From contig JBEKHW010000005.1 in assembly GCA_050012075.1 (NCBI GenBank), positions 1-60,059 on the forward strand: a stretch of DNA of 60,059 bases, given 5' to 3'. This DNA comes from Candidatus Omnitrophota bacterium. Its GTDB lineage: Bacteria > Omnitrophota > Gorgyraeia > Gygaellales > Profunditerraquicolaceae. The notes under the pieces were generated by a model. The model ran no database searches. It was given only the letters and a program-made list of their open reading frames with translations, and had not been told where the DNA came from. The translations under genes were made by a program, and so were the position numbers. This document shows positions 2,840 to 54,820 of the stretch, in pieces (position 1 is the stretch's first letter; each line of letters begins with the position of its first letter).

Positions 2840-3274
2840 TTACATTCCAATATCGGCACAAGTAGGGCAGTCAGGAAACGCACCGCACACAACACAGTTG
2901 CAGGTTATTGTACCGTTCTCATCTATATCTAAGGAATAACAGATGTGGCCGTTTTTCTGGCGTATGACACGGGCTAACCAAAATGAGGTAGAAGGAAATG
3001 GTATAGTCGCCACGAAATAGTTAGCCTTGATGTCATCGGGTGTCAGGCCCAGGTCACCCGGCATACTCATACTGCCTGATGCGCCGGGATAAACATCATG
3101 TTCGGCAAAATATCTGCGCTGCGCCGTCCTTAAAGTATTCAGGAGTATTACCCCTTCTGCTACCCTTGCCTTTTCTATCAGCCTGGTAAACCTGGGGAAG
3201 GCAAACATTGCCAGGATTGCGACTATAACGGTAGCTACTATTACTTCCAGAAAGGTATAACCTTTTTTCATCAT
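2840..3274 (-). CDS. prepilin-type N-terminal cleavage/methylation domain protein (type IV pilin or pseudopilin-like)
   Basis: N-terminus MMKKGYTFLEVIVATVIVAILA matches the G/FTLxE prepilin motif followed by a hydrophobic helix. Cys-rich C-terminus. Confidence 0.8.
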   Translation of the reverse strand: MMKKGYTFLEVIVATVIVAILAMFAFPRFTRLIEKARVAEGVILLNTLRTAQRRYFAEHDVYPGASGSMSMPGDLGLTPDDIKANYFVATIPFPSTSFWLARVIRQKNGHICYSLDIDENGTITCNCVVCGAFPDCPTCADIGM

Positions 3275-3324: not shown

Positions 3325-3720
3325 CTATAAATATCTCGATATGGCCTTGAGTATCTTATCCGCTGCCTCTTTGTCGCCGACAGCGCCAACCCGCACTTCT
3401 ATCCTGGTAGATGCGGATGTAATCGGGCGGATATCAATCCAGATTTCCCTGCCGTCAGTATAGTTGCTCTTTATCTGGGCAACCTCTTCGGTATGCGTGT
3501 ATTTGGCAACTGACAGCCTGAGTGATTTCAACCCGGACTTTGCGGCATTTATAGTGCGCTCATAAGGGACATTTACCTCTTGAGTCAATTTACCGGAAAG
3601 CCAGGCAGCTGTTCCGGCTCCGCCGGCAGCCCCTGCGAACAAAAGAAAACAACCAGAGGAAGTAATTGAAAAAACAGCAAGCGCAGCCACTATCAGTATT
3701 TTCTTCATCTTCTTCTCCAT
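3325..3720 (-). CDS. lipoprotein, possibly DUF3568-like
   Basis: Signal peptide with lipobox (ITSSGC). The family assignment is from memory only. Confidence 0.5.
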   Translation of the reverse strand: MEKKMKKILIVAALAVFSITSSGCFLLFAGAAGGAGTAAWLSGKLTQEVNVPYERTINAAKSGLKSLRLSVAKYTHTEEVAQIKSNYTDGREIWIDIRPITSASTRIEVRVGAVGDKEAADKILKAISRYL

Positions 3721-3746
3721 TTTAAATGTTGCTGTACTTTGCGGCT

Positions 3747-3971
3747 TTACCCAAGAACAAGATTAAATAAATATCCTGTGAAGATAATGCCTATCCCTAC
3801 GACAGCCGCAAATATACCCAGTAATTTTATTTTCATTGCCTTCCTTAAAATCATAAACTCAGGCAGGGATAAACCGGTAACCGCCATCATAAAAGCAAGT
3901 GCTGTGCCCATACTCACGCCTTTTTCCGTTAATACGCTGACTAAAGGAATAACGCCTGGAAGGCAAACCAA
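3747..3971 (-). pseudogene. C-terminal fragment of a CSCS-motif permease, paralogous to the intact gene at 16439..17389
   Basis: The 74-aa ORF aligns residue for residue with the last ~72 aa of the 316-aa permease (PLVSVLTEKGVSMGTALAFMMAVTGLSLPEFMILRKAMK versus PLISALTEKGVAMGTALSFMMAVTALSLPEFIILRKAMK). There is no upstream coding continuation. Confidence 0.8.
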
Positions 3972-15679: not shown

Positions 15680-15986
15680 TCCCCCTTAGCTCAGTCGGTA
15701 GAGCGAGTGGCTGTGCGAGCCCGCCAAAGGCGGGCGAGCAAAAATGCTCAAAGCGCAGCTTCTGCGGGAAACCGTAGTTGAAACTGCAGGAGAATTGCTG
15801 GAAGCCCTGGATTCAGGGTAATCAGCAGCCGAGCCCGCCAAAGATTTAATGACGGGAAGGTTCAGAGACTATGCACCTGCTGCCTAAAAGTGAAAACTCA
15901 CGGCAAAGATATAGTCCGCGTCCGGAAGTAATTCCGGGTCACGTGTAACCACCAGGTCCGAGGTTCGAGTCCTCGAGGGGGAGCCA
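15680..15986 (+). tRNA. tRNA-Asn(GUU) interrupted by a 231-nt group I intron; mature length 76 nt including the encoded CCA
   Basis: Acceptor TCCCCCT/AGGGGGA, G73, CCA. D arm GCTC-AGTCGGTA-GAGC. T arm CGAGG-TTCGAGT-CCTCG. Anticodon stem AGTGG/CCACC. Joining exon 1 (15680-15714) to exon 2 (15946-15986) gives the loop CT-GTT-AA. The alternative junction (CT/TGTAA, Thr) is less consistent with P1 pairing and with the U1/G73 identity elements. Confidence 0.8.
15715..15945 (+). ncRNA. group I (self-splicing type) intron with no ORF
   Basis: GGTTCAGAGACTA (15859-15871) and AAGATATAGTCC (15906-15917) match the conserved P7/P3' and P7' elements of group I introns. P2 is CTGCGG-GAAA-CCGTAG; P3 GCAGG/CCTGC; P5 CCCTG-GATT-CAGGG; P6 CCCG/CGGG; P9 CCGGAA-GTAA-TTCCGG. 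The exon end GGCTGT pairs with GCAGCT (15755-15760), giving a U.G at the 5' splice site. The last intron nucleotide is G. Confidence 0.8.
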
Positions 15987-16125: not shown

Positions 16126-16428
16126 ATGAGACCTAAAAAGACGAGATGGGTAAAATGTGTTCCGGGTGAGAGGTGTTTTAAGCCGCTGTGTAAGCCGATG
16201 AGTAAATGCGAAGGTGTTTATTTGTCTCTTGATGAATTTGAGGCTGTTCGTCTTGCTTGTCTTGAAAAGTTAAAGCAAATCGATGCCGCAAAACTTATGA
16301 AGATATCACATCCGACTTTCTCGCGGATTTTAACCTCGGCTCAACGAAAGATAGCTGATGGTTTGGTGAATATTAAAGCTATTAGAATTGAAGGTGGCTG
16401 TTGTGAAATTATTAAGAAAAGAAAATGA
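16126..16428 (+). CDS. DUF134 family putative DNA-binding protein
   Basis: RPKKTRWV...FKP...LSLDEFEAVRL...HPTFSRILTSAQRKIADGLVNIKAIRIEGG is the DUF134 pattern as I recall it. Confidence 0.75.
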   Translation: MRPKKTRWVKCVPGERCFKPLCKPMSKCEGVYLSLDEFEAVRLACLEKLKQIDAAKLMKISHPTFSRILTSAQRKIADGLVNIKAIRIEGGCCEIIKKRK

Positions 16429-16438
16429 AGGATGAGTC

Positions 16439-17389
16439 ATGATTAAACCGATTATTGATTGGTTGGTATATGATATTTTTAAGATGAGGCAAGGGGCCCT
16501 TTTTTCCGAAGCCCTGAATTTCTTTCTTTACGACACGGTTAAAATCTTCTTCTTATTGACCGTTATTATCTTTGTCGTTGCCATCATAAGGACGTTTTTC
16601 TCACCTGAGAAAACCCGAGCGATTTTAAGCCATAAGCAAGGTTATTGGGGCAATGTACTTGCAGCGCTTTTAGGAATCTTGACGCCTTTTTGCTCATGTA
16701 GTGCGGTTCCCTTATTCTTGGGTTTTTTAGACGCAGGGGTTCCATTGGGAGTGACGTTTTCATTTTTAGTTGCATCACCCATGATTAATGAAGTGGCGCT
16801 GGTTATGTTGTGGGGGCTTTTTGGTTGGAAGATATCTTTTATTTATATTGGGAGCGGACTTGCTATAGCTATTTTTTCGGGGATAGTGATTGGCAGACTT
16901 AAAGTTGAAGAGTTGGTTGAACATTTCGGTCATAAAGAGCAGTCGTGCTGTGCTAAATCATCCAGCATGACATTTGACGATAGGTTCGCTTATGCCAAAG
17001 AGTATACGAGGGATATCTTAAAAAGAATATGGCTGTTTGTTATTCTTGGCATCGGTTTAGGGGCGTGGATTCATGGTTACGTCCCGGCGGATTTTCTTGC
17101 AAAATATGCCGGTAAGGAAAATTGGTTTGCCGTGCCTTTGGTGACACTTATTGGTATTCCTCTTTACTCCAATGCAGCCGGAGTTATTCCTCTAATTAGC
17201 GCATTGACTGAGAAAGGCGTTGCTATGGGAACGGCACTTTCTTTTATGATGGCAGTAACCGCACTTTCTCTACCGGAGTTTATAATACTTCGAAAAGCTA
17301 TGAAGTTGAAGTTACTTATAATTTTTGCTTCGGTCGTGGGTATAGGTATTATATTTACAGGTTATCTGTTTAATCTCATTTTGAAATAA
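16439..17389 (+). CDS. permease with FCSCSAVP motif (PF03773-like, ArsP-type family)
   Basis: 316 aa, polytopic, with the characteristic TPFCSCSAVPLF motif. The family name is from memory. Confidence 0.75.
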   Translation: MIKPIIDWLVYDIFKMRQGALFSEALNFFLYDTVKIFFLLTVIIFVVAIIRTFFSPEKTRAILSHKQGYWGNVLAALLGILTPFCSCSAVPLFLGFLDAGVPLGVTFSFLVASPMINEVALVMLWGLFGWKISFIYIGSGLAIAIFSGIVIGRLKVEELVEHFGHKEQSCCAKSSSMTFDDRFAYAKEYTRDILKRIWLFVILGIGLGAWIHGYVPADFLAKYAGKENWFAVPLVTLIGIPLYSNAAGVIPLISALTEKGVAMGTALSFMMAVTALSLPEFIILRKAMKLKLLIIFASVVGIGIIFTGYLFNLILK

Positions 17390-17395
17390 GGAGAA

Positions 17396-17632
17396 ATGAT
17401 GAAGATAGAAATCATAGGAGTTGGTTGTTCGAAGTGTAAGCAGCTTACTGCCAATGCAGAGGCCGCAGTAAAAGAGCTTAATATAATCGCTGAGATATCC
17501 AAGGTGAGTGATATCGGGAAAATCGTCGAATACGGCGTGATGATGACTCCGGCATTGGCGGTAGATAGTGCTGTGGTATCGGTGGGCAAGGTATTGAGCA
17601 AGGAAGAAATAAAGAAAATCTTAATAAAATAA
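17396..17632 (+). CDS. small thioredoxin-fold protein (redox-active disulfide protein 2 / MTH895-like)
   Basis: 78 aa, MKIEIIGVGCSKC with a CxxC motif near the N-terminus. Commonly sits next to the CSCS permease. Confidence 0.75.
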   Translation: MMKIEIIGVGCSKCKQLTANAEAAVKELNIIAEISKVSDIGKIVEYGVMMTPALAVDSAVVSVGKVLSKEEIKKILIK

Positions 17633-17644
17633 CAGGAGGGAAAG

Positions 17645-18070
17645 TTGAAGAAGTTAATCGTAATACTTCTGACGGCGGTTGCAGTAATTAGCACAGGTTT
17701 TTCAGTCTTTGCCGCAGAGGATAAAACTTCGGGTAAGGTTATCGCCTATTATTTTCATGGAACAATGCGTTGTCCTACCTGCTATAAACTTGAGCAGTAT
17801 TCAAAGGAAGCGATAGAAACTAATTTTAAAGATGCACTCGCATCAGGAAAGCTTGAGTTTAAAGTAGTCAATGTAGAAGATAAAGGCAATGAGCACTATG
17901 GGAACGATTACCAGCTTTATACTAAATCGCTTATTTTGTCTTTGGTCAAAGATGGCAAGGAAATAAAATGGAAAAATATGGATAAGATTTGGGAGTATGT
18001 CGGCAATAAGCAGAGATTTATTGATTATGTAAAGAACGTGGTCGCTGATTTTTTGAAGGAAACCAAATGA
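17645..18070 (+). CDS. membrane-anchored or secreted thioredoxin-fold protein with a CPTC motif
   Basis: TTG start after GGAGGG. Signal/anchor sequence, then YYFHGTMRCPTCYKLEQ (CxxC). Confidence 0.6.
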   Translation: MKKLIVILLTAVAVISTGFSVFAAEDKTSGKVIAYYFHGTMRCPTCYKLEQYSKEAIETNFKDALASGKLEFKVVNVEDKGNEHYGNDYQLYTKSLILSLVKDGKEIKWKNMDKIWEYVGNKQRFIDYVKNVVADFLKETK

Positions 18071-18756
18071 CAGAGATATTTATAGGCTTTGCGTCTGCAT
18101 TGTGGCTGGGGATTTTGACGTCCATCAGCCCATGCCCTTTGGCAAGCAATGTGGCGGCTATTTCCTTTTTATCTAAGAAAATAACACATCCAGCGCTTGT
18201 GTTTATTTCAGGATTGGCGTATACGCTTGGCAGAATGTTTTCTTATGCGATTTTAGGATGGATTATTATTAGTTCTCTTCTAAGTGTTCCTCAAGTGGCC
18301 CAATTCCTGCAGAAATACATGGGTAAGGCTTTGGGGCCACTGCTCATTCTTACCGGGTTGGTTTTACTTGAGATAATTACTGTCCGTCTGCCGGGAATAT
18401 CGCTTTCACAAAAGCATCATAATAAACTTGCAGAGTCCGGAGCTCCGGGGGCCTTTTTGCTTGGTTTCATTTTTGCTCTGGCATTTTGCCCTATTTCTGC
18501 GGCGTTATACTTTGGGAGCCTTATTCCTTTAGCGATTAACAGTAAAAGCGGTATCGTCCTGCCATTCATTTATGGAATTGGTACAGGGTTGCCGGTTCTT
18601 GTATTTGCTGTTGCCATTGCGTTAGGCGTGACATCATTGAGCCGTTGGTTTCATAAAATCACACAGCTTGAATACTATACTCGAAAGATTACCGGAGCCG
18701 TATTTATCCTTGTTGGTTTGTACTATGCAGGAATATATATATTGAGATTATTTTAA
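18067..18756 (+). CDS. CcdA/DsbD-like transmembrane thiol:disulfide electron transporter
   Basis: Six TM helices with the paired motifs SISPCPLA and LAFCPISA, typical of the DsbD/CcdA superfamily. Confidence 0.7.
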   Translation: MTEIFIGFASALWLGILTSISPCPLASNVAAISFLSKKITHPALVFISGLAYTLGRMFSYAILGWIIISSLLSVPQVAQFLQKYMGKALGPLLILTGLVLLEIITVRLPGISLSQKHHNKLAESGAPGAFLLGFIFALAFCPISAALYFGSLIPLAINSKSGIVLPFIYGIGTGLPVLVFAVAIALGVTSLSRWFHKITQLEYYTRKITGAVFILVGLYYAGIYILRLF

Positions 18757-18765
18757 GGTGAGCAA

Positions 18766-19575
18766 TTGGACATAGACAAGAATAAGCAGTATGAGATTAT
18801 CGTTTTTCCAAATCAAGATGAAGGCCTAAAAGCTCAAAGGATTTTGGTTTCTAAGGGCGAGGATTTTAAGCACATTTCTACTTTGGCAGTAGTTGTGTCT
18901 GAAGAGCATAAACATGAAGCGTGCCGGGTAATTATCGATGAGAATGTGCTGATTAGTGGACGTTATCCATTTTTATATCGTGATTATGAAGAGGATTTTT
19001 TTAAAAGAGCCCATGGGTATAAGGCTCCGGAGTCAAACAGCGAGTTTTTAAAAAGTATCACTCTGTGTTATGTGGCTCCTTGTATGGCCGATGAGAAAAA
19101 GATACGGCTCATCGGATATTTCGACAGGGACATAACAGAGATTTTACCGTATATAAACGCCGTCATCAAAGGTGCCTCGTATAATAAGGCCGCTTCGACT
19201 TTGACCTATGCGAAAGAGCGCAGACTTATTAATCTATATAACATTAAGATTACTATAGCCAAAGCAGACGATATCATCGATGCTTGGCATATTTTAGACG
19301 AGGTTAAAGCTCTTATAAATAATACTTATAAGAATAGGGCAGGTATTAAGCCAAGTTATGAGGAGAAAGTAAAAGTAACAGCCCTTCAGATTTACGGCTG
19401 GCTTCCTAAGACTAATTGCCGTGCCTGTGGGGAAGCGACATGTCTTGCTTTTGCTTGTAGGCTTCTGTTGGGAGAACAGAAGCTTTCAAAATGCGCTCCA
19501 TTGTCAACAGAGCAAAAATTTACCGAGAATAAGAAAATTATGCAAGAGATGGCAGAAGCATTAGGTGTTGCGTGA
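18766..19575 (+). CDS. protein with a C-terminal RnfB-type 4Fe-4S (FeS) domain
   Basis: C-terminal CRACGEATCLAFACRLLLGEQKLSKC resembles the CxxCG...C...C putative Fe-S domain. The N-terminal part is unassigned. TTG start. Confidence 0.55.
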   Translation: MDIDKNKQYEIIVFPNQDEGLKAQRILVSKGEDFKHISTLAVVVSEEHKHEACRVIIDENVLISGRYPFLYRDYEEDFFKRAHGYKAPESNSEFLKSITLCYVAPCMADEKKIRLIGYFDRDITEILPYINAVIKGASYNKAASTLTYAKERRLINLYNIKITIAKADDIIDAWHILDEVKALINNTYKNRAGIKPSYEEKVKVTALQIYGWLPKTNCRACGEATCLAFACRLLLGEQKLSKCAPLSTEQKFTENKKIMQEMAEALGVA

Positions 19576-19634
19576 TGAGGAAAAGGAAATAGTTAGTAGT
19601 TCTTTACAGACTCGGTCAGCTTCTTCTGTGACAC

Positions 19635-19998
19635 AATAAGCTTTAAACTCGTCCAAAAAGTTGCGAAAATCGTCCTCTTGGGGGAGTAAAAATAAAAAAG
19701 CCCTGTTATTAAATATAGCGGGGCTTTTTTATTGCCGATTGCCCTCGAGGACGAGAACCGAGGACCTAAAAAAGGGATTATTAAGGGGAAAAGACCGTTT
19801 TCCCCTTAAGGTTCAATTCTTTGATTGCTAAGGAAGGGGTGACAGCGAGCGAATGAAATGAGCGAGCGCCATAGGGGAACCATCTGGGTTCCCCTATGGG
19901 AAGGAGCGAAGGCCAACTTTAGTGCTTTGACCGAGCGACGACAGGTCCGAGGTTCGAGCCTATTGCAAAACTAACCCTCTGTGATAGAATATATTGCA
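19635..19998 (+). repeat. 364-bp repeat, copy 1 (directly upstream of the ZIP gene)
   Basis: Near identical to 20871..21233 except for a ~75-bp central segment. Contains tRNA-Asn-like fragments (19731-19757 inverted, 19932-19948 direct), hairpins at 19773-19797 and 19859-19889, and the promoter TTGCAA-16-TGaTAGAAT (19953-19980) inside the inverted repeat AACCCTCTG/CAGAGGGTT. Confidence 0.9.
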
Positions 19999-20058
19999 GA
20001 GGGTTTTTGGTTAGAGTAGAGTTATAGCTGGCATAATACAAAACAAAAGGACTATATT

Positions 20059-20796
20059 ATGAATTTATTATATGCCCTTATCGCAAGCACTATCGTAAGC
20101 CTCATTTCTTTAATAGGCGTTCTCGCTTTGGTAATAAAAGATAACCTATTAAAAAAACTTCTTATTTTTTTGGTAGCCTTTGCGGCTGGTGGCTTAATGG
20201 GCGGCGCCTTCTTTGATATTATCCCCGAAGCCTCTGAATACGTAAAAGATATTACTCAATTATTTCTTTACGTTATATTGGGTTATACGCTCTTTTTTAT
20301 ATTAGAGAAATATCTTCATTGGCGTCATTGCCACGATGCGGAATGCAAAATCCATAGGCTTACATATTTAAATATTATTGGCGATATTGTGCATAATTTT
20401 AGTGACGGTCTAATTTTAGGAGCAATTTTCTTAATAAATATCAAAGTTGGTATTGCGGCCACTCTCGCAATCGTTTTCCATGAAATTCCGCATGAGCTGG
20501 GAAATTTTACTGTTTTAATATATGGCGGGTTTTCTAAACTCAAAGCCTTGTTATTTAATTTTCTATCTGCTTTGTTTGCTATAGTGGGAACAATAGTTGG
20601 TTATTACTGTGCTACTAAAATCAGCGGTTTTGTCAGTATTTTATTGCCAGCAGCTGCTGGGAGCTTTATTTATATCGCCTCTTGTGATTTGATTCCTGAA
20701 TTACATAAGGAAGAAGATGGCAAGAGGTCAACTCTTATAATGGTAACTTTTATTTTTGGAATTATGCTTATGTATTTTCTGAAAATGGCAGGTTAG
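20059..20796 (+). CDS. ZIP family metal (Zn/Fe) transporter, ZupT-like
   Basis: 245 aa, polytopic, with the HEIPHELGNF signature. Confidence 0.85.
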   Translation: MNLLYALIASTIVSLISLIGVLALVIKDNLLKKLLIFLVAFAAGGLMGGAFFDIIPEASEYVKDITQLFLYVILGYTLFFILEKYLHWRHCHDAECKIHRLTYLNIIGDIVHNFSDGLILGAIFLINIKVGIAATLAIVFHEIPHELGNFTVLIYGGFSKLKALLFNFLSALFAIVGTIVGYYCATKISGFVSILLPAAAGSFIYIASCDLIPELHKEEDGKRSTLIMVTFIFGIMLMYFLKMAG

Positions 20797-20870
20797 GCAG
20801 TTTAAAGAATCGGAGATAATATAAGCTCTTTAGCTAGTTTTCCCGCCTCTTCGCTCATGCACCAGTTGCA

Positions 20871-21233
20871 AAACTCGTCCAAAAAGTTGCGAAAATCGTC
20901 CTCTTGGGGAAGTAAAAATAAAAAAGCCCTGTTATTAAATATAGCGGGGCTTTTTTATTTCCGATTGCCCTCGAGGACGAGAACCGAGGACCTAAAAAGA
21001 GGGGTTTTGGGGAGAAAAGACCGTTTTCTCCCCAAGCAGGTAAATTTAATTTCTGCAAGGAGGGATGACAGCGAGCGATGAAATGAGCGAGCGCCATAGG
21101 GGAACCATCTGGGTTCCCCTATGGGAAGGAGCGAAGGCCAACTTTAGTGCTTTGGCCGAGCGACGACAGGTCCGAGGTTCGAGCCTATTGTAAAACTAAC
21201 CCTCTGTGATAGAATATATTGCAGAGGATTTTT
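20871..21233 (+). repeat. 364-bp repeat, copy 2 (directly upstream of the cupin gene)
   Basis: See copy 1. tRNA-like fragments at 20967-20993 and 21167-21183; hairpin 21008-21034; promoter TTGTAA-16-TGaTAGAAT (21188-21215). Confidence 0.9.
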
Positions 21234-21237
21234 ATGT

Positions 21238-21603
21238 GTGGAGCAAAATAACAAAAAAGTAATTAAGATGGTTTTTACAAAGCAAGGGAATATTAAAGCA
21301 AAGGCATTTAAGTTAGCAGATTTAATATCTTACCAGAGAAGTTCTGTTGTAAGCCGTGAAATCATAAATAAGAAGACAGGGACTGTTACTGTATTTGCTT
21401 TTGATAAAGGCGAGGGTTTAAGCGAACACACGGCACCCTACGATGCTTTAGTCTATATACTTGATGGGGAAGCAAAGATTTCCATATCCGGTAAACCGCA
21501 TCCGGTAAAGAAGGATGAGATAATTATAATGCCGGCAAATAAACCCCATTCATTAAAAGCGGTAGAGCGTTTTAAGATGCTTTTAGTAATGGTGAGGTCT
21601 TAA
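21238..21603 (+). CDS. cupin domain protein
   Basis: 121 aa with a cupin beta-barrel pattern (GEGLSEHTAPYDALVYILDGEAKISI...IIMPANKPHSL). GTG start 9 nt after AGGA; an alternative ATG lies at 21268. Confidence 0.7.
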   Translation: MEQNNKKVIKMVFTKQGNIKAKAFKLADLISYQRSSVVSREIINKKTGTVTVFAFDKGEGLSEHTAPYDALVYILDGEAKISISGKPHPVKKDEIIIMPANKPHSLKAVERFKMLLVMVRS

Positions 21604-21700
21604 ATTCAGGCAATAGCAGCCAGTTCCTTAGTTAGTCTTTCCACCTCCTCCGTCATCAACCAGTTGCGAAACTCCTCTCTTACCCCCCTTCTCTTTCCCA

Positions 21701-21728
21701 TTGCCTTGCCACTTACCGGTGCTATAAT
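21701..21728 (+). promoter_or_regulatory. sigma70-type promoter module (copy 1)
   Basis: TTGCCT, 16-nt spacer, TGcTATAAT. About 70 bp including the leader AAGGTGTTACTTTGG is repeated at 22285-22350. Confidence 0.55.
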
Positions 21729-21773
21729 TGAATTCTGAAAAGGTGTTACTTTGGTAAACTTCCCTATCTCCTA

Positions 21774-22259
21774 ATGGATAAAACCGCAGTTGGGGCTAAA
21801 GAAAAAATAACCAGGGGAATAATAATCTGCGCTATTCTGGTTATTACATATTCGTTCCTGGGAATGCCCTCCGGAAGTTTCAGTTCCTATTATGACAACT
21901 TTCGTCCCTCCCCCCCAAATCTAATCTTTATGAGGTATCTTTTCTCCATAGCCTTGAGATTGGCTATGCTCATTTGCGGCATCGGTATCTTATTCCGTAA
22001 GAATATATTCCGTAAGGCAACCATATTCATTGGCTTTTTTACCATAGCCACTGCTTGCTGGAAGCACCCGCCTATATGTTTTAAAATAATCTTTTTGAAG
22101 GGAATTGGGCAGGGAATGTTTTCCGCAGATATAATCCCGCGAATCAATATCTTGTCATGGATTTGTGTTGCAATCTGCTCTATTATTGATATCAGCATTT
22201 GTCTTTGTTTGATATATTATCTTACCCGCCCCAAAGTAAAAGAACAGTTTAAACAATAA
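21774..22259 (+). CDS. polytopic membrane protein, paralogue of 23872..24345
   Basis: 161 aa with four or five TM helices. Shares the C-terminal tail YLTRPKVKEQF with the 157-aa protein. Confidence 0.6.
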   Translation: MDKTAVGAKEKITRGIIICAILVITYSFLGMPSGSFSSYYDNFRPSPPNLIFMRYLFSIALRLAMLICGIGILFRKNIFRKATIFIGFFTIATACWKHPPICFKIIFLKGIGQGMFSADIIPRINILSWICVAICSIIDISICLCLIYYLTRPKVKEQFKQ

Positions 22260-22297
22260 CAGCAAGCTCATTACACAATCCTCTTCTCTCTTTTCCA

Positions 22298-22325
22298 TTG
22301 CCTAATTCCTGACTGGTGCTATAAT
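22298..22325 (+). promoter_or_regulatory. sigma70-type promoter module (copy 2)
   Basis: TTGCCT, 16-nt spacer, TGcTATAAT. Confidence 0.55.
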
Positions 22326-22405
22326 TAAACCTTTGAAGGGTGTTACTTTGGGGGACGTACCCAGTTTACTGTTTGATTGGAATTAAAATCTAAAAAGGAG
22401 GAATT

Positions 22406-23871: not shown

Positions 23872-24345
23872 ATGGAAAAGAAAAGACCGTTAAGTATAAC
23901 CGAACTTTCCCTATACCTTATTTTACTTCCATTCATCCTGTCTTTCTTGACACAAGCTATTCTCCTGCTCACCGTTCGTCCTTCTCTATATATTGCGCAA
24001 CTATCGAGCGGGTTCTTCGGTAATTGCTTTAAATTTATTTCTACGTGGGAAGGTTCGGTTATGGTAGTTTTATACGGAATACTGGTGATAGGAGTTTTCT
24101 ATCTTAAGAACTTAGCGAGAATAGGAATGATCGTGGTAACGCTAGGGGTAGCAGTCACCGGGCCGGCAGCGGCCATTACCGCTGCTGTAGTAGCCGCTAG
24201 CCCCTTAGTCCGCCAACACTTCTTAAGAGTATACGGCGTGCTTCCTGTAATTATTATCTATCTCATTGTCGCGCTTTTTTCATTGGCGTCGGGAATGGTT
24301 GCATTTTATCTTACCCGCCCAAAAGTAAAAGAACAATTTAGATAA
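23872..24345 (+). CDS. polytopic membrane protein, paralogue of 21774..22259
   Basis: AGGAGG RBS. C-terminal YLTRPKVKEQFR. Confidence 0.6.
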   Translation: MEKKRPLSITELSLYLILLPFILSFLTQAILLLTVRPSLYIAQLSSGFFGNCFKFISTWEGSVMVVLYGILVIGVFYLKNLARIGMIVVTLGVAVTGPAAAITAAVVAASPLVRQHFLRVYGVLPVIIIYLIVALFSLASGMVAFYLTRPKVKEQFR

Positions 24346-51580: not shown

Positions 51581-53047
51581 TTAGCCCTTTATTACTCCCA
51601 ATGGCCGCATGCGGCATATACGCTTTGCGATACCTGCGTTATGCACTACATTTACAACGTCGTTGACATCTTTATACGCCTGCGGCGCCTCTTCTACTAT
51701 CGTTGCCTTTCCTGAGGCCTTTACTATTATACCCTTAGATTCCAATTCTTTCAACAATGCGTTTAAGTTTGTGGACTTGGCCGAGGCAGTGCGTGACTTC
51801 ACGCGGCCTGCGCCGTGGCAGGTAGTGCCAAAGGTTTCTTCCATGGCTTTCTGGGTACCTGCCAATAAATAAGAGTTTCTTCCCATATCCCCCGGTATAA
51901 TCACCGGCTGGCCCGTCTCTTTGTATCTATCAGGAAGAGCCGGATGCCCGGGGCCAAAGGCACGGGTTGCGCCTTTACGGTGAACGCATAATTTCTTTTC
52001 TTTCCCGGAAACAAGATGTTTTTCTATCTTGGCGATATTATGTGCCACGTCATAGATAAGGAACATGCCAAGCTTCTGCCATGATACCCCGAAGACTTTC
52101 TCAAAGCTTTTACGGGTAAGGTGCATAAGGCACTGCCGGTTATTCCAGGCGTAATTAGCGGCGCAGCGCATTGCGGCCAGATACGCCTTTCCTTCGGGTG
52201 AATTAACCGGAGCGCAGGAAAGCTGCCTGTCAGGGACATTAATATTATATTTCTGCAGGCAGTGAATCATATTTCTTGTGTAATCATCACAGACCTGATA
52301 ACCGAGGCCGCGTGAACCGGAATGAATCATCACTGTAATCTGTCCCATATCTAATCCAAAGGCATCGCAAAGTTTACTGTCATAAAGCTGCTCAATGACC
52401 TGGATTTCCAGGAAATGATTCCCCGAGCCAAGGGTCCCTGATTGCGCTCTTCCCCGCTCGTACGCCCTATCCGACACGGCATCCGGGTCTGCGCCGGCAA
52501 TTGCCCCGTTTTCTTCAGTGCATTCCAGGTCATCCTGGGTGCCGTATCCTTTCCCTACTGCCCAGCCTGACCCTTTCAGTAAAATCTCTTTTTCCTCTTT
52601 GGAAGTTACCCGTATTTCGCCCTTAGAGCCCAATCCCGCGGGAACATCGTTAAAAAGGGCAAAAACCAGCTTCTCAAGTTTATCCTTTACTTCTTCAATA
52701 CGTAAATCCGTGCGCAGCATCCGCACCCCGCAATTTATGTCGAAACCCACACCTCCGGGAGAAACAACTCCACCTTCTTCAATATCGGTCGCTGCCACTC
52801 CTCCAATAGGAAAACCGTATCCCCAGTGTATATCCGGCATTGCAAGCGAGGCGTTGACTATGCCGGGCAAAAACGCGACATTGGCCACTTGCTCAAGGGC
52901 TTTATCCTGATATATATCCTTTAATAATTTCTCGTCGGCATAGATCAACCCCGGCACGCGCATACCGGCTTTATATGATTTGGGGATGCGCCAGCGGTAA
53001 TCATCGATTTTTTCTAGCTTTACCTGTGTGGCCTCATTAGACATCAA
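51581..53047 (-). CDS. rtcB: RNA 3'-phosphate/5'-OH ligase RtcB
   Basis: 488 aa. DIHWGYGFPIGG, GGVGFDINCG, SGSRGLG and HGAGR are the RtcB metal- and GMP-histidine motifs. Confidence 0.93.
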   Translation of the reverse strand: MMSNEATQVKLEKIDDYRWRIPKSYKAGMRVPGLIYADEKLLKDIYQDKALEQVANVAFLPGIVNASLAMPDIHWGYGFPIGGVAATDIEEGGVVSPGGVGFDINCGVRMLRTDLRIEEVKDKLEKLVFALFNDVPAGLGSKGEIRVTSKEEKEILLKGSGWAVGKGYGTQDDLECTEENGAIAGADPDAVSDRAYERGRAQSGTLGSGNHFLEIQVIEQLYDSKLCDAFGLDMGQITVMIHSGSRGLGYQVCDDYTRNMIHCLQKYNINVPDRQLSCAPVNSPEGKAYLAAMRCAANYAWNNRQCLMHLTRKSFEKVFGVSWQKLGMFLIYDVAHNIAKIEKHLVSGKEKKLCVHRKGATRAFGPGHPALPDRYKETGQPVIIPGDMGRNSYLLAGTQKAMEETFGTTCHGAGRVKSRTASAKSTNLNALLKELESKGIIVKASGKATIVEEAPQAYKDVNDVVNVVHNAGIAKRICRMRPLGVIKG

Positions 53048-53453: not shown

Positions 53454-53607
53454 TTATAACTGTTCCCCTATCGGAAAGGAACTTAATGCACTCCGCTTGC
53501 CGTTCTGTTTAACGCTTAATTCACCCGCTATTTCCTATCGGTGAATTACACCGCGAAGCGGTGCTGCTTGAGTGCACTTAAAATTTCTCTTGACGGAAAA
53601 TTTTAAG

Positions 53608-53680
53608 TGGGCCATGTAGGAGTCGGACCTACGACCTTGACATTAAGAGTGTCCTGCTCTACCAATTGAGCTAATGGCCC
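53608..53680 (-). tRNA. tRNA-Lys(CUU)
   Basis: Reverse complement GGGCCATTAGCTCAATTGGTAGAGCA-GGACA-CTCTTAA-TGTCA-AGGTC-GTAGG-TCCGACT-CCTAC-ATGGCCCA. The T loop reads TCCGACT (C at position 55), which is unusual. CCA is not encoded. Confidence 0.8.
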
Positions 53681-54820
53681 TTAAATTCCAACCTGTTTAT
53701 TATCAATCAGTTCCGATAAAGTAAGAAATCTTTTATTTTCAAAGTTTGAAATTTCCTGCAAATTTCCTGCAGTTTGAGGCTCTGTTTTATGAAGATTCTG
53801 CTCCAAAACATCAACTGCGCGCTTCTTATGATCCGGTGATAAATGACTGTATCTCAATGTCATCTCCAGTGATTTATGCCCCAATAATTCCCTAACAGTG
53901 TTCAGATCAACGCCTGACATGACTAACTGCGATGCAAAAGTATGCCTTAAATCGTGAAAATGGAAGTCAACTATACCAGAATTATTAATGGCTGTAAAGA
54001 AAGATTTTTTAATATCTCCATAAGGCTTGCCATCTTTATTACAGAAGATATACTGCGAATCCGGATGCTTAAGAACCCCAATAATTGTCTTCTGAACAAT
54101 TCTATTCATCGGTACTTCTCTTTTTTCCCCATTCTTGGTAGTTAATAGATGAATTATATTGCGCTTAATGTCTATATCGTGCCATTTAAGCTTAAGAATT
54201 TCGCTCTTACGCATGCCGGTATACAAAGCAACGATAATTATAGGCTTTAGATGTTCGCAACAATTAGATAATAGTCTATCTATTTCCTCTTTTTCAAGAA
54301 AACGCAGCCTCTGGTTATCTTCTTTAAACAACTCAACCCCTTTACAGGGATTTTTTTCAGACTTACCCCATAATATTGCCTTATTAAAAATGGATTTTAA
54401 AACCGCTAAAGCTCTATTGACTGTAGCTGGACTTATTGTTTTTTTAGCTATAGCTCGTTTTATTACCTGTTTAGCCCTTGCAGACTTAAACCTCTCAACA
54501 TCTAGAGATGTTATTTCGTATAGATATTTCCCGCCAAAGAAACTTTTTAATAATCCTACAATCTTCTTATCGGTATTATATGATCTTTTGTGTTTAGAAT
54601 GGAGCTGCAGATATTCATCAGCAAACTCCTCAAATTTAATCTTTTGTTCCTTTCTCACATCAAGATACTTATTCTCAGCGATTTCAGTCAATCTTTTATG
54701 CAAAACAGCCTCAGCTAATTTCTTGTCTTTACCGATATGTTCTGTCTTTCTTCTGCCATTATAAGAATAGACAATATAGTAGATTATCCCCTTTTTACCC
54801 TTGTATTCGTATACCGGCAT
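53681..54820 (-). CDS. tyrosine recombinase / phage-type integrase
   Basis: 379 aa with an N-terminal SAM-like domain and catalytic motifs TGMRKSE, HDLRHTFAS and LGHKSLEMTLRYSH. The stop codon abuts the 5' end of tRNA-Lys. Confidence 0.9.
   Translation of the reverse strand: MPVYEYKGKKGIIYYIVYSYNGRRKTEHIGKDKKLAEAVLHKRLTEIAENKYLDVRKEQKIKFEEFADEYLQLHSKHKRSYNTDKKIVGLLKSFFGGKYLYEITSLDVERFKSARAKQVIKRAIAKKTISPATVNRALAVLKSIFNKAILWGKSEKNPCKGVELFKEDNQRLRFLEKEEIDRLLSNCCEHLKPIIIVALYTGMRKSEILKLKWHDIDIKRNIIHLLTTKNGEKREVPMNRIVQKTIIGVLKHPDSQYIFCNKDGKPYGDIKKSFFTAINNSGIVDFHFHDLRHTFASQLVMSGVDLNTVRELLGHKSLEMTLRYSHLSPDHKKRAVDVLEQNLHKTEPQTAGNLQEISNFENKRFLTLSELIDNKQVGI

Follow-up and report, generated by a model that had tools for sequence, protein, structure and literature searches.

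Organization of the locus

We analysed a 60,059-nt stretch of a Candidatus Omnitrophota genome (assembly GCA_050012075.1, contig JBEKHW010000005.1), hereafter called the window, in which two copies of a 364-bp intergenic unit, J1 and J2, lie on the two sides of a gene for a ZIP metal transporter. A tRNA-Asn gene sits 4 kb upstream of the repeats, and parts of the units are related to it. The main features are the following (coordinates, strand, description).

15680-15986, +, tRNA-Asn(GTT) gene, exons 15680-15714 and 15946-15986 (direct reading)
16126-19575, +, cargo between tRNA-Asn and ZIP: DUF134, ArsP-like permease, thioredoxin, 141-aa protein, DsbD_2 and iron-sulfur (FeS) protein genes (Pfam)
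19645-20008, +, repeat copy J1
20059-20796, +, ZIP metal transporter gene (Pfam PF02535, 7.7e-43), with J1 and J2 on its two sides
20871-21233, +, repeat copy J2
21238-21603, +, cupin gene (Pfam PF07883), downstream of J2

J1 and J2 are direct repeats with 92.4% identity over 369 aligned columns. This identity is a mosaic: the left arms match at 124 of 126 positions (98%) and the right arms at 167 of 172 (97%), whereas the centre is only 70% identical, with a diverged segment of 66 nt in each copy (19771-19836 in J1 and 20997-21062 in J2). Outside the units, identity is 54% in the left flank (p = 0.05) and 46%, which is not significant, in the right flank. The alignment thus bears out the twin repeats that a first-pass annotation of the sequence had described, with near-identical arms and a diverged centre. 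The centre had been put at ~75 bp, and the coordinates of the first copy, including 19932-19948 for its direct tRNA-Asn fragment, were 10 nt too low.

The same annotation had proposed a search for copies of the unit elsewhere. This search returned two copies in the window and none in 596 Gb of genomes, JGI (Joint Genome Institute) metagenomes, viral contigs, plasmids and phages; no further copy of the full unit is present in the 60 kb. An independent sample (SRR7028477) contains an identical 928-nt contig with ZIP, both ends of which break within the repeats, consistent with the presence of the same repeat structure in that sample. Regarding insertion polymorphism, contig look-ups by exact protein gave only the same contig and the 928-nt contig broken inside the repeats.

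Parts of the repeat unit

The five parts that the first-pass annotation had distinguished, (a) to (e), are all found in both copies. They are listed below together with the other signals of the unit (coordinates in J1, then in J2 where there are two).

19694-19730 and 20920-20956, both strands, T1 and its counterpart T1', predicted bidirectional rho-independent terminator, the first of which would end the FeS operon (direct reading)
19741-19767 and 20967-20993, -, (a), relic in inverted orientation, matching the T-arm and acceptor of tRNA-Asn at 22/27 positions
19781-19809 and 21007-21035, (c), palindrome or hairpin of 12 bp, inside the diverged segment
19847, 19860, 19904 and 19933 (span 19847-19938), +, GAGCGA four times, same-strand repeats in J1
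19869-19899 and 21094-21124, (d), perfect 12-bp palindrome CCATAGGGGAAC-N7-GTTCCCCTATGG
19942-19958 and 21167-21183, +, (b), tRNA-Asn fragment comprising the variable loop, the 5' strand of the T-stem and the T-loop
19963-19990 and 21188-21215, +, P1 and P1', candidate promoter, in P1 TTGCAA-16-TG-a-TAGAAT with its -10 in the loop of (e)
19973-20005 and 21198-21230, +, (e), hairpin AACCCTCTG-N15-CAGAGGGTT followed by a T-run
19994-20022, +, P2, candidate ZIP promoter TTGCAG-17-TAGAGT, with its -35 within the 3' arm of (e)

Part (b) carries the clearest link to the tRNA gene. It is identical at 17 of 17 positions to 15953-15969 of tRNA-Asn. In the window, the 17-mer CAGGTCCGAGGTTCGAG is found at 15953, 19942 and 21167 and nowhere else, three occurrences against a chance expectation of 0.02, so the exact direct match that had been reported holds. 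The 14 nt that come next in the tRNA are deleted after (b). As this same deletion is found in J1 and J2, the two copies stem from one sequence and not from two integrations. Part (a), described earlier as an inverted, mutated tRNA-Asn 3' end, is indeed a 27-mer that matches at 22 positions; on the minus strand, 10 nt separate it from T1. The hexamer GAGCGA had been taken for a match to the junction of the D-arm and the anticodon stem. This proved no better than chance, and the hexamer occurs four times in each copy. We also considered a complete pseudo-tRNA in the unit, on either strand, and rejected it: alignments to the tRNA 5' half did not rise above shuffles (p = 0.22-0.95).

Two palindromes occupy the middle of the unit. 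In (c), 3 of the 12 pairs are changed on both arms between the copies and none is broken, which agrees with the compensated changes noted earlier; this covariation comes from two sequences with little statistical power, and 66 of 500 shuffles reach it. The perfect 12-bp hairpin (d) is likewise present in both copies, and scans for exact matches to it gave none in genome, metagenome and viral collections. Around the palindromes, the plus strand carries GAGCGA four times and CGAG eight times per copy (19735-19962 and 20961-21187), against 0.07 and 0.45 expected per 228 nt, with CTCG only once in the same stretch as against the eight CGAG. Such strand-specific repeats could be protein-binding repeats. 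On the left side of J1, 19670-19754 forms an 85-nt imperfect palindrome centred at T1.

Parts (a) and (b) are imperfect inverted repeats (13/18) enclosing about 220 bp, and might on this ground be the terminal inverted repeats of a non-autonomous element resembling a miniature inverted-repeat transposable element (MITE). The unit, however, extends beyond both of them, by 95 nt on the left and by 50 nt on the right, which makes them internal; there are no target-site duplications, and the two copies in 60 kb have no counterpart in the collections searched. We thus regard a MITE-like origin as barely credible. The same copy number gives no support to the mobile promoter cassette that had been proposed.

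The tRNA-Asn gene and the ZIP loci of relatives

The anticodon of the window tRNA-Asn is split by a group I intron at about 15715-15945 (Rfam RF00028 at 15736-15938, 67.6 bits). ARAGORN reports no tRNA-Asn in the window, because this intron splits the gene. In a second Omnitrophota assembly (L111, about 3440-3790, minus strand), tRNA-Asn is likewise split at the anticodon by a group I intron (71 bits), and five other loci, L008, L009, L016, L092 and L098, have an intron-less tRNA-Asn. A search of the full-text literature found no paper on group I introns in bacterial tRNA-Asn. The 3' flank and terminator of the window tRNA-Asn differ from those found at (b) and (e).

To place the units in context, ZIP loci of relatives (designated by L-numbers) were fetched from JGI metagenomes. 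The ZIP genes of L008 and L009 are 90% identical to that of the window, and directly before them these loci carry an intact tRNA-Asn that has no intron, followed by a terminator hairpin, with no insertion between tRNA-Asn and ZIP. Both loci can be aligned to the window over the 3' arm of (e) and over the 50 nt that precede the start codon of ZIP. Only the last ~90 nt of the unit, that is (e) and the 5' untranslated region, are shared with the ZIP loci of relatives. On this evidence, the ancestral order was tRNA-Asn, then terminator, then ZIP, and the relatives still keep it.

The identity of (e) came from two further loci. L098 and L092 have CCCTCTG-N15-CRGAGGG-TTTT after an intact tRNA-Asn, separated from it by a 10-nt spacer; in the stretch from (b) to (e), L098 reads ...GGTTCGAGTCCTCGAGGGGGAGCCAATAAAACTTAACCCTCTG and the window ...GGTTCGAGCCTATTGCAAAACTAACCCTCTG. 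Because the same hairpin trails intact tRNA-Asn in these loci, (b) and (e) together are most readily understood as a displaced tRNA-Asn 3' half, shortened by 14 nt, with its native terminator still attached. In L008, L009 and L016, the hairpin at the position of (e) has a different sequence. This position thus keeps structure and not sequence across relatives, as expected of a terminator.

These observations bear on the proposal that CCCTCTG-N15-CAGAGGG is the operator of a metal-responsive repressor that co-regulates ZIP and cupin from the embedded promoter. The -10 element does lie between the arms, and both downstream genes could be metal-related. However, a hairpin of the (e) type, with its T-run, follows intact tRNA-Asn and precedes ACR3, HD-domain, SpoIIAA-like and unclassified genes in relatives, which argues against a metal-specific operator; in addition, the hairpin sequence is different in L008, L009 and L016, and the window contains two exact sites, both within the repeats, with no enrichment elsewhere. 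The operator that the first-pass annotation had put forward is therefore very improbable.

The relatives also offer a parallel to the window. L016 independently has an insertion between tRNA-Asn and ZIP, a DUF134/methyltransferase/LGT/TauE/ArsP block of 4.5 kb; at its right junction, a short remnant of the 3' end of the tRNA precedes the terminator and ZIP. The context of ZIP varies among relatives. The loci of the FeS protein in relatives (L003-L007) contain no tRNA, and nothing in them resembles the unit.

Terminators, promoters and folding of the units

T1 has a 12-bp stem, with 12 of 12 pairs in both copies, and a T6 run, with A6 as its equivalent for the opposite strand; the sub-threshold Rfam matches on it are terminator-bearing families. 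In a terminator scan, (e) also scores as an intrinsic terminator in both copies, with one broken pair in J2. The inverted repeat AACCCTCTG...CAGAGGGTT encloses TTGCAA/TTGTAA-16-TGaTAGAAT in both copies, as had been described. P1 scores 9/12 plus TG in both copies. Across the region, sigma-70-like promoter hits are not enriched over shuffles (10 versus 7.7). An outward promoter function of P1 is nonetheless plausible, especially for the cupin gene, since P1' is the sole sigma-70-like plus-strand site from T1' to the cupin start.

ZIP may have an additional promoter. Counterparts of P2 (TTGCRG-17-TAAAAT/TAGAAT) are found in L008, L009, L014, L016, L098 and L111, whereas J2 has no good -10 for it; we infer that P2 is a second ZIP promoter conserved in relatives. 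At the place equivalent to P1, L010 has TTGACT-16-TGaTAAAAT, overlapping the 5' arm of an (e)-type hairpin. In this locus (L010, 1-85), the ZIP start codon comes only 7 nt after that candidate promoter, which would imply a leaderless ZIP mRNA.

As the first-pass annotation had predicted, (a) pairs with (b), and this pairing closes the minimum-free-energy fold of both J1 and J2. The folds are unusually stable, with z = -4.6 and -5.3 on the plus strand and -3.5 on the minus strand. A structured cis-regulatory RNA (riboswitch or attenuator leader) or a small RNA might account for this, with (c), (d) and the (a)-(b) helix as sensing domain and (e) as the terminator of an expression platform. This reading would also explain why (c) keeps 12 of 12 pairs through three double changes in the diverged centre, why a terminator-like hairpin stands just upstream of the ZIP and cupin open reading frames (ORFs), and why the (a)-(b) helix contains GA/GA mismatches, which are tolerable only in plus-strand RNA. 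Yet the stability comes mainly from the two perfect palindromes, which DNA-level processes also keep, and the covariation of (c) is that of two sequences. No Rfam 15 family was found: the gathering threshold returned only the intron and tRNAs, and extending the scan to E <= 10 added terminator look-alikes. Close relatives for which upstream sequence is available lack the unit ahead of ZIP. Moreover, the domain would not be co-transcribed with the downstream gene, because no plus-strand sigma-70-like promoter lies between T1 and the domain, and the ortholog of (e) in relatives is a tRNA terminator with unrelated genes behind it. The structured regulatory RNA suggested earlier is therefore improbable, although we give it more credit than the operator.

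A junction element that recurs in arrays

The left end of the unit belongs to a ~40-nt sequence, which we call the junction element. In tRNA orientation, its consensus is CAT-N3-CCAGTTGCGAAACTCGTCCA-N4-GGGGAGCCA, with a terminator 7-20 nt later, and a manual alignment to the tRNA-Asn 3' half gives matches at ~24 of 35 positions. Within the window, junction sequence follows the FeS, ZIP and cupin genes (19596-19690, 20824-20901 and 21622-21678, respectively). The individual copies, with those of three related loci, are as follows.

About 19596-19656, more diverged first junction core before the J1 core
19657-19690, +, junction core in J1, AAAGTTGCGAAAATCGTCC...TTGGGGGAG (nhmmer 19659-19690, copy alignment)
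20862-20880 and 20883-20901, junction cores at J2
21649-21678, +, third junction element, after the cupin gene, CAT-CAA-CCAGTTGCGAAACTCCTC
L008, junction copies at 998-1042, 2039-2084 and 3117-3136
L094, junction copies at 459/1166/2031
L098, junction copies at 3738-3693 and 2366-2328

In relatives, junction sequence also trails ZIP and other genes. Downstream of its ZIP gene, L014 has a second copy of the tRNA 3' half, its flank, an (e)-type hairpin and the promoter region; there, junction element and flank align continuously to the stretch that runs from tRNA-Asn through the terminator to ZIP in L008 and L009 (z = 10.9). A pattern scan of one genome per species gave 26 matches against about 17 expected by chance, and 10 of the 26 are in Omnitrophota assemblies. 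Approximately 17 of the 26 keep context beyond the search pattern, and the remainder look like chance matches inside ordinary ORFs. One of the loci with the element, L092, is labelled Planctomycetales; this label is doubtful, as its flank is identical to that of L008. The core had no match in viral contigs.

An nhmmer profile revealed that the copies form arrays in one orientation, spaced by 0.6-1.7 kb: three copies each in L008, L094 and the window, and two each in L098, L105 and L014. Its position in L092, L098 and L111 is 1-2.6 kb downstream of a tRNA-Asn gene of the same orientation, and in L089 the element trails tRNA-Gln. The cargo between copies includes ZIP, ACR3, CDF, DNA-alkylation repair, HD and rhamnosidase genes and an antitoxin-like gene, this last one recognized by eye. 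Searches of the related loci with Pfam and phmmer found no recombinase in any junction-array locus.

Two other identities of the element were tried and rejected. As a structured RNA, 14 elements gave a consensus of -2.6 kcal/mol with no compensated pairs (RNAalifold). The opposite strand reads ...WLPxLDEFRNWxMTEE...* or, as a 16-18-aa peptide, M(T/S)EExEKLYKEL..., which raised the idea of a decayed protein C-terminus; however, two copies have in-frame stops, and the element is never part of a long ORF. Divergence by codon position is 0.36/0.28/0.46, only a mild periodicity, and the peptide motif is absent from 5.8 billion called proteins.

The arrays might be integron-like: in Omnitrophota, tRNA-Asn, or in some cases a different tRNA, would anchor a row of small cassettes that carry a promoter and a terminator each and are moved by an unlinked recombinase. 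The site would be the ~40-nt junction element, or the 17-nt (b), and ZIP with one 364-bp unit would be a currently excisable cassette. The twin units would then be compound recombination sites, with (c), (d) and GAGCGA as accessory protein-binding sites. The element and its terminator do separate one- or two-gene cargos in one orientation in about 10 Omnitrophota assemblies, with few copies per genome, clustered and not dispersed; the lack of a consensus RNA structure fits a DNA site, and so do the different contexts of ZIP. On the other hand, no locus has a linked recombinase, and circular or empty-site forms were not observed. Several loci have the element but no tRNA-Asn in the available DNA, and in one it follows tRNA-Gln. 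The non-Omnitrophota labels are possibly binning errors, as for L092, and decayed ordinary integrase-bearing islands could leave the same pattern. We consider this array mechanism unlikely for the twin units, though less so than a regulatory RNA.

Origin of the twin units

The explanation that we favour, with fair though not high confidence, is that each 364-bp unit is a composite intergenic junction of a tRNA-Asn-linked genomic island, made of recombination scars and transcription signals. By this account, which we hold to be probable overall, the twin repeats are an island-junction scar, duplicated or homogenized by recombination, and largely ordinary. The first-pass annotation had offered a recombination scar of insertions at tRNA-Asn as one of its options. 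It is the one that agrees with the tRNA-Asn upstream of ZIP in relatives, with the identification of (e) as the tRNA-Asn terminator and with the new 3' flank of the window's own tRNA, the outcome expected when an element integrates at a tRNA gene (PMC4383910).

Four layers would make up the unit. The first, on the left, would be a tandemly doubled ~40-nt junction element, then T1, closing the upstream gene. The second would be the inverted tRNA-Asn T-arm relic against T1. The third would consist of the palindromes (c) and (d) and the four GAGCGA, possibly protein-binding sites of a former attachment-site arm. The fourth would be the displaced 17-nt tRNA-Asn fragment with its 14-nt internal deletion, then the native terminator of the tRNA, (e).

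The proposed sequence of events starts with insertion of the DUF134-to-FeS operon at tRNA-Asn, whereupon the tRNA would be regenerated with a new 3' flank. The insertion would push the old tRNA 3' fragment and its terminator downstream, beside ZIP. The whole junction would then be placed on both sides of ZIP by local duplication, by Campbell-type homologous insertion of a ZIP-bearing circle or by gene conversion between paralogous junctions. The flank identities fit these three routes alike and do not discriminate between them. As direct repeats bracket it, ZIP could be looped out. With respect to present function, T1 would stop upstream transcription and P1, in the hairpin loop, would restart it for the downstream gene; for ZIP only, P2, overlapping the 3' arm of (e), would be an added promoter. 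The tRNA pieces themselves would be vestigial.

Several points weigh against this explanation. Neither an integrase nor a recombinase was found in the inserted region, in the downstream ORFs (Pfam) or in the related loci, and the sole integrase of the window adjoins tRNA-Lys, 33 kb off. A textbook displaced fragment should retain the 3' end of the tRNA, which is missing from (b). The middle of the unit, with (a), (c), (d) and GAGCGA, has no counterpart in any relative, as judged by blastn against the fetched related loci. The diverged centre with its fully compensated hairpin hints at some constraint beyond a pure scar, possibly selection on the hairpin or palindrome, or else palindrome-templated repair. 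The flank homology on which gene conversion would draw is weak, reaching p = 0.05 on the left only.

Comparison with known systems

A displaced tRNA fragment marks the end of an island in the Islander definition (PMC4383910), and asn-tDNA (tRNA-Asn gene) hotspots are described in Klebsiella (PMC4891358). As in such tDNA islands, one end of the region is marked by an intact tRNA-Asn and the other by a partial direct copy of the 3' half of this gene, to which the old tRNA flank and terminator remain attached. L008 and L009 show the uninterrupted site. In contrast to these islands, no integrase is found inside (Pfam, all ORFs of 16126-19575). In addition, the displaced fragment is a 17/17 direct copy without the tRNA 3' end and with a 14-nt deletion, and it sits in a 364-bp unit duplicated around one gene.

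Tandem accretion is a second precedent, in which successive integrations push older elements outward (bioRxiv 10.1101/2020.12.28.424599). It is represented by the Prochlorococcus tycheposon (same reference), Dehalococcoides ssrA (PMC3146451), and cis-mobilizable elements and integrative and conjugative elements (CIME/ICE). The arrays described here share with these systems partial tRNA-like repeats in the same orientation, small modules and newer insertions nearest the tRNA. They differ in that no array has a recombinase or a remnant of one, that the site is a conserved, diverged tRNA-like 40-mer and not the exact end of the host tRNA, and that each module carries its own terminator and promoter-like sequence.

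Integron arrays, with attC sites, and clusters of attC sites lacking integron-integrases (CALINs) also consist of single-gene cassettes in the same orientation with a recurring short site, sometimes with no nearby integrase. However, the junction site has neither the imperfect palindrome or fold of attC nor the R'/R'' consensus (GTTRRRY/RYYYAAC). Furthermore, the array is tRNA-linked, its cassettes have their own promoter-like sequences, and no IntI-type integrase lies near tRNA-Asn. Lastly, the right end of the unit resembles a terminator with an overlapping promoter, with a hairpin and T-run after a tRNA and -35 and -10 elements in or over the hairpin for the next gene. Here, in contrast, the terminator no longer stands behind its tRNA, and a copy of it, along with the relic, now precedes a second, unrelated gene.

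The operon upstream of J1 and other features of the window

The DUF134-ArsP-thioredoxin-141aa-DsbD_2-FeS operon is conserved in Omnitrophota (the window, L003, L006 and L016). In relatives, it is found at another location and is followed by genes for ACR3 (SBF) and a low-molecular-weight phosphatase (ArsC-like). This continuation suggests that the operon is an arsenic or metalloid resistance unit. The FeS protein bears the JGI name 'ArsR family metal-binding transcriptional regulator'.

The tyrosine integrase mentioned above (53607-54820, minus strand, PF00589, 6e-38) directly adjoins tRNA-Lys(CTT), and a gene for an RtcB RNA ligase (51581-53047) adjoins the integrase. This region probably represents another island linked to a tRNA.

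A second repeated promoter module lies downstream of the cupin gene, at 21690-21754 and 22287-22351. It has the sequence TTGCCT-16-TGcTATAAT, with 77% identity over 65 nt, and precedes two consecutive genes. Two small membrane proteins (21774-22259 and 23872-24345) share a C-terminal ...YLTRPKVKEQF, and the first of them follows one copy of the module. Together, the repeated module and the paired membrane proteins suggest more local duplication in the same island.

Implications

The repeat that seemed built from tRNA parts may thus be explained as the footprint of gene insertion beside a tRNA gene, which spares the hunt for a riboswitch or an operator. tRNA-Asn would also be a hotspot at which the uncultivated phylum Omnitrophota gathers accessory genes, among them those for ZIP, ACR3 and CDF and ars-like ones. 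The junction sequence is usable to find further arrays, and these arrays are the part that deserves follow-up. If the junction were the recombination site of an unlinked enzyme, a hypothesis at this stage, they would represent a new cassette-capture system.

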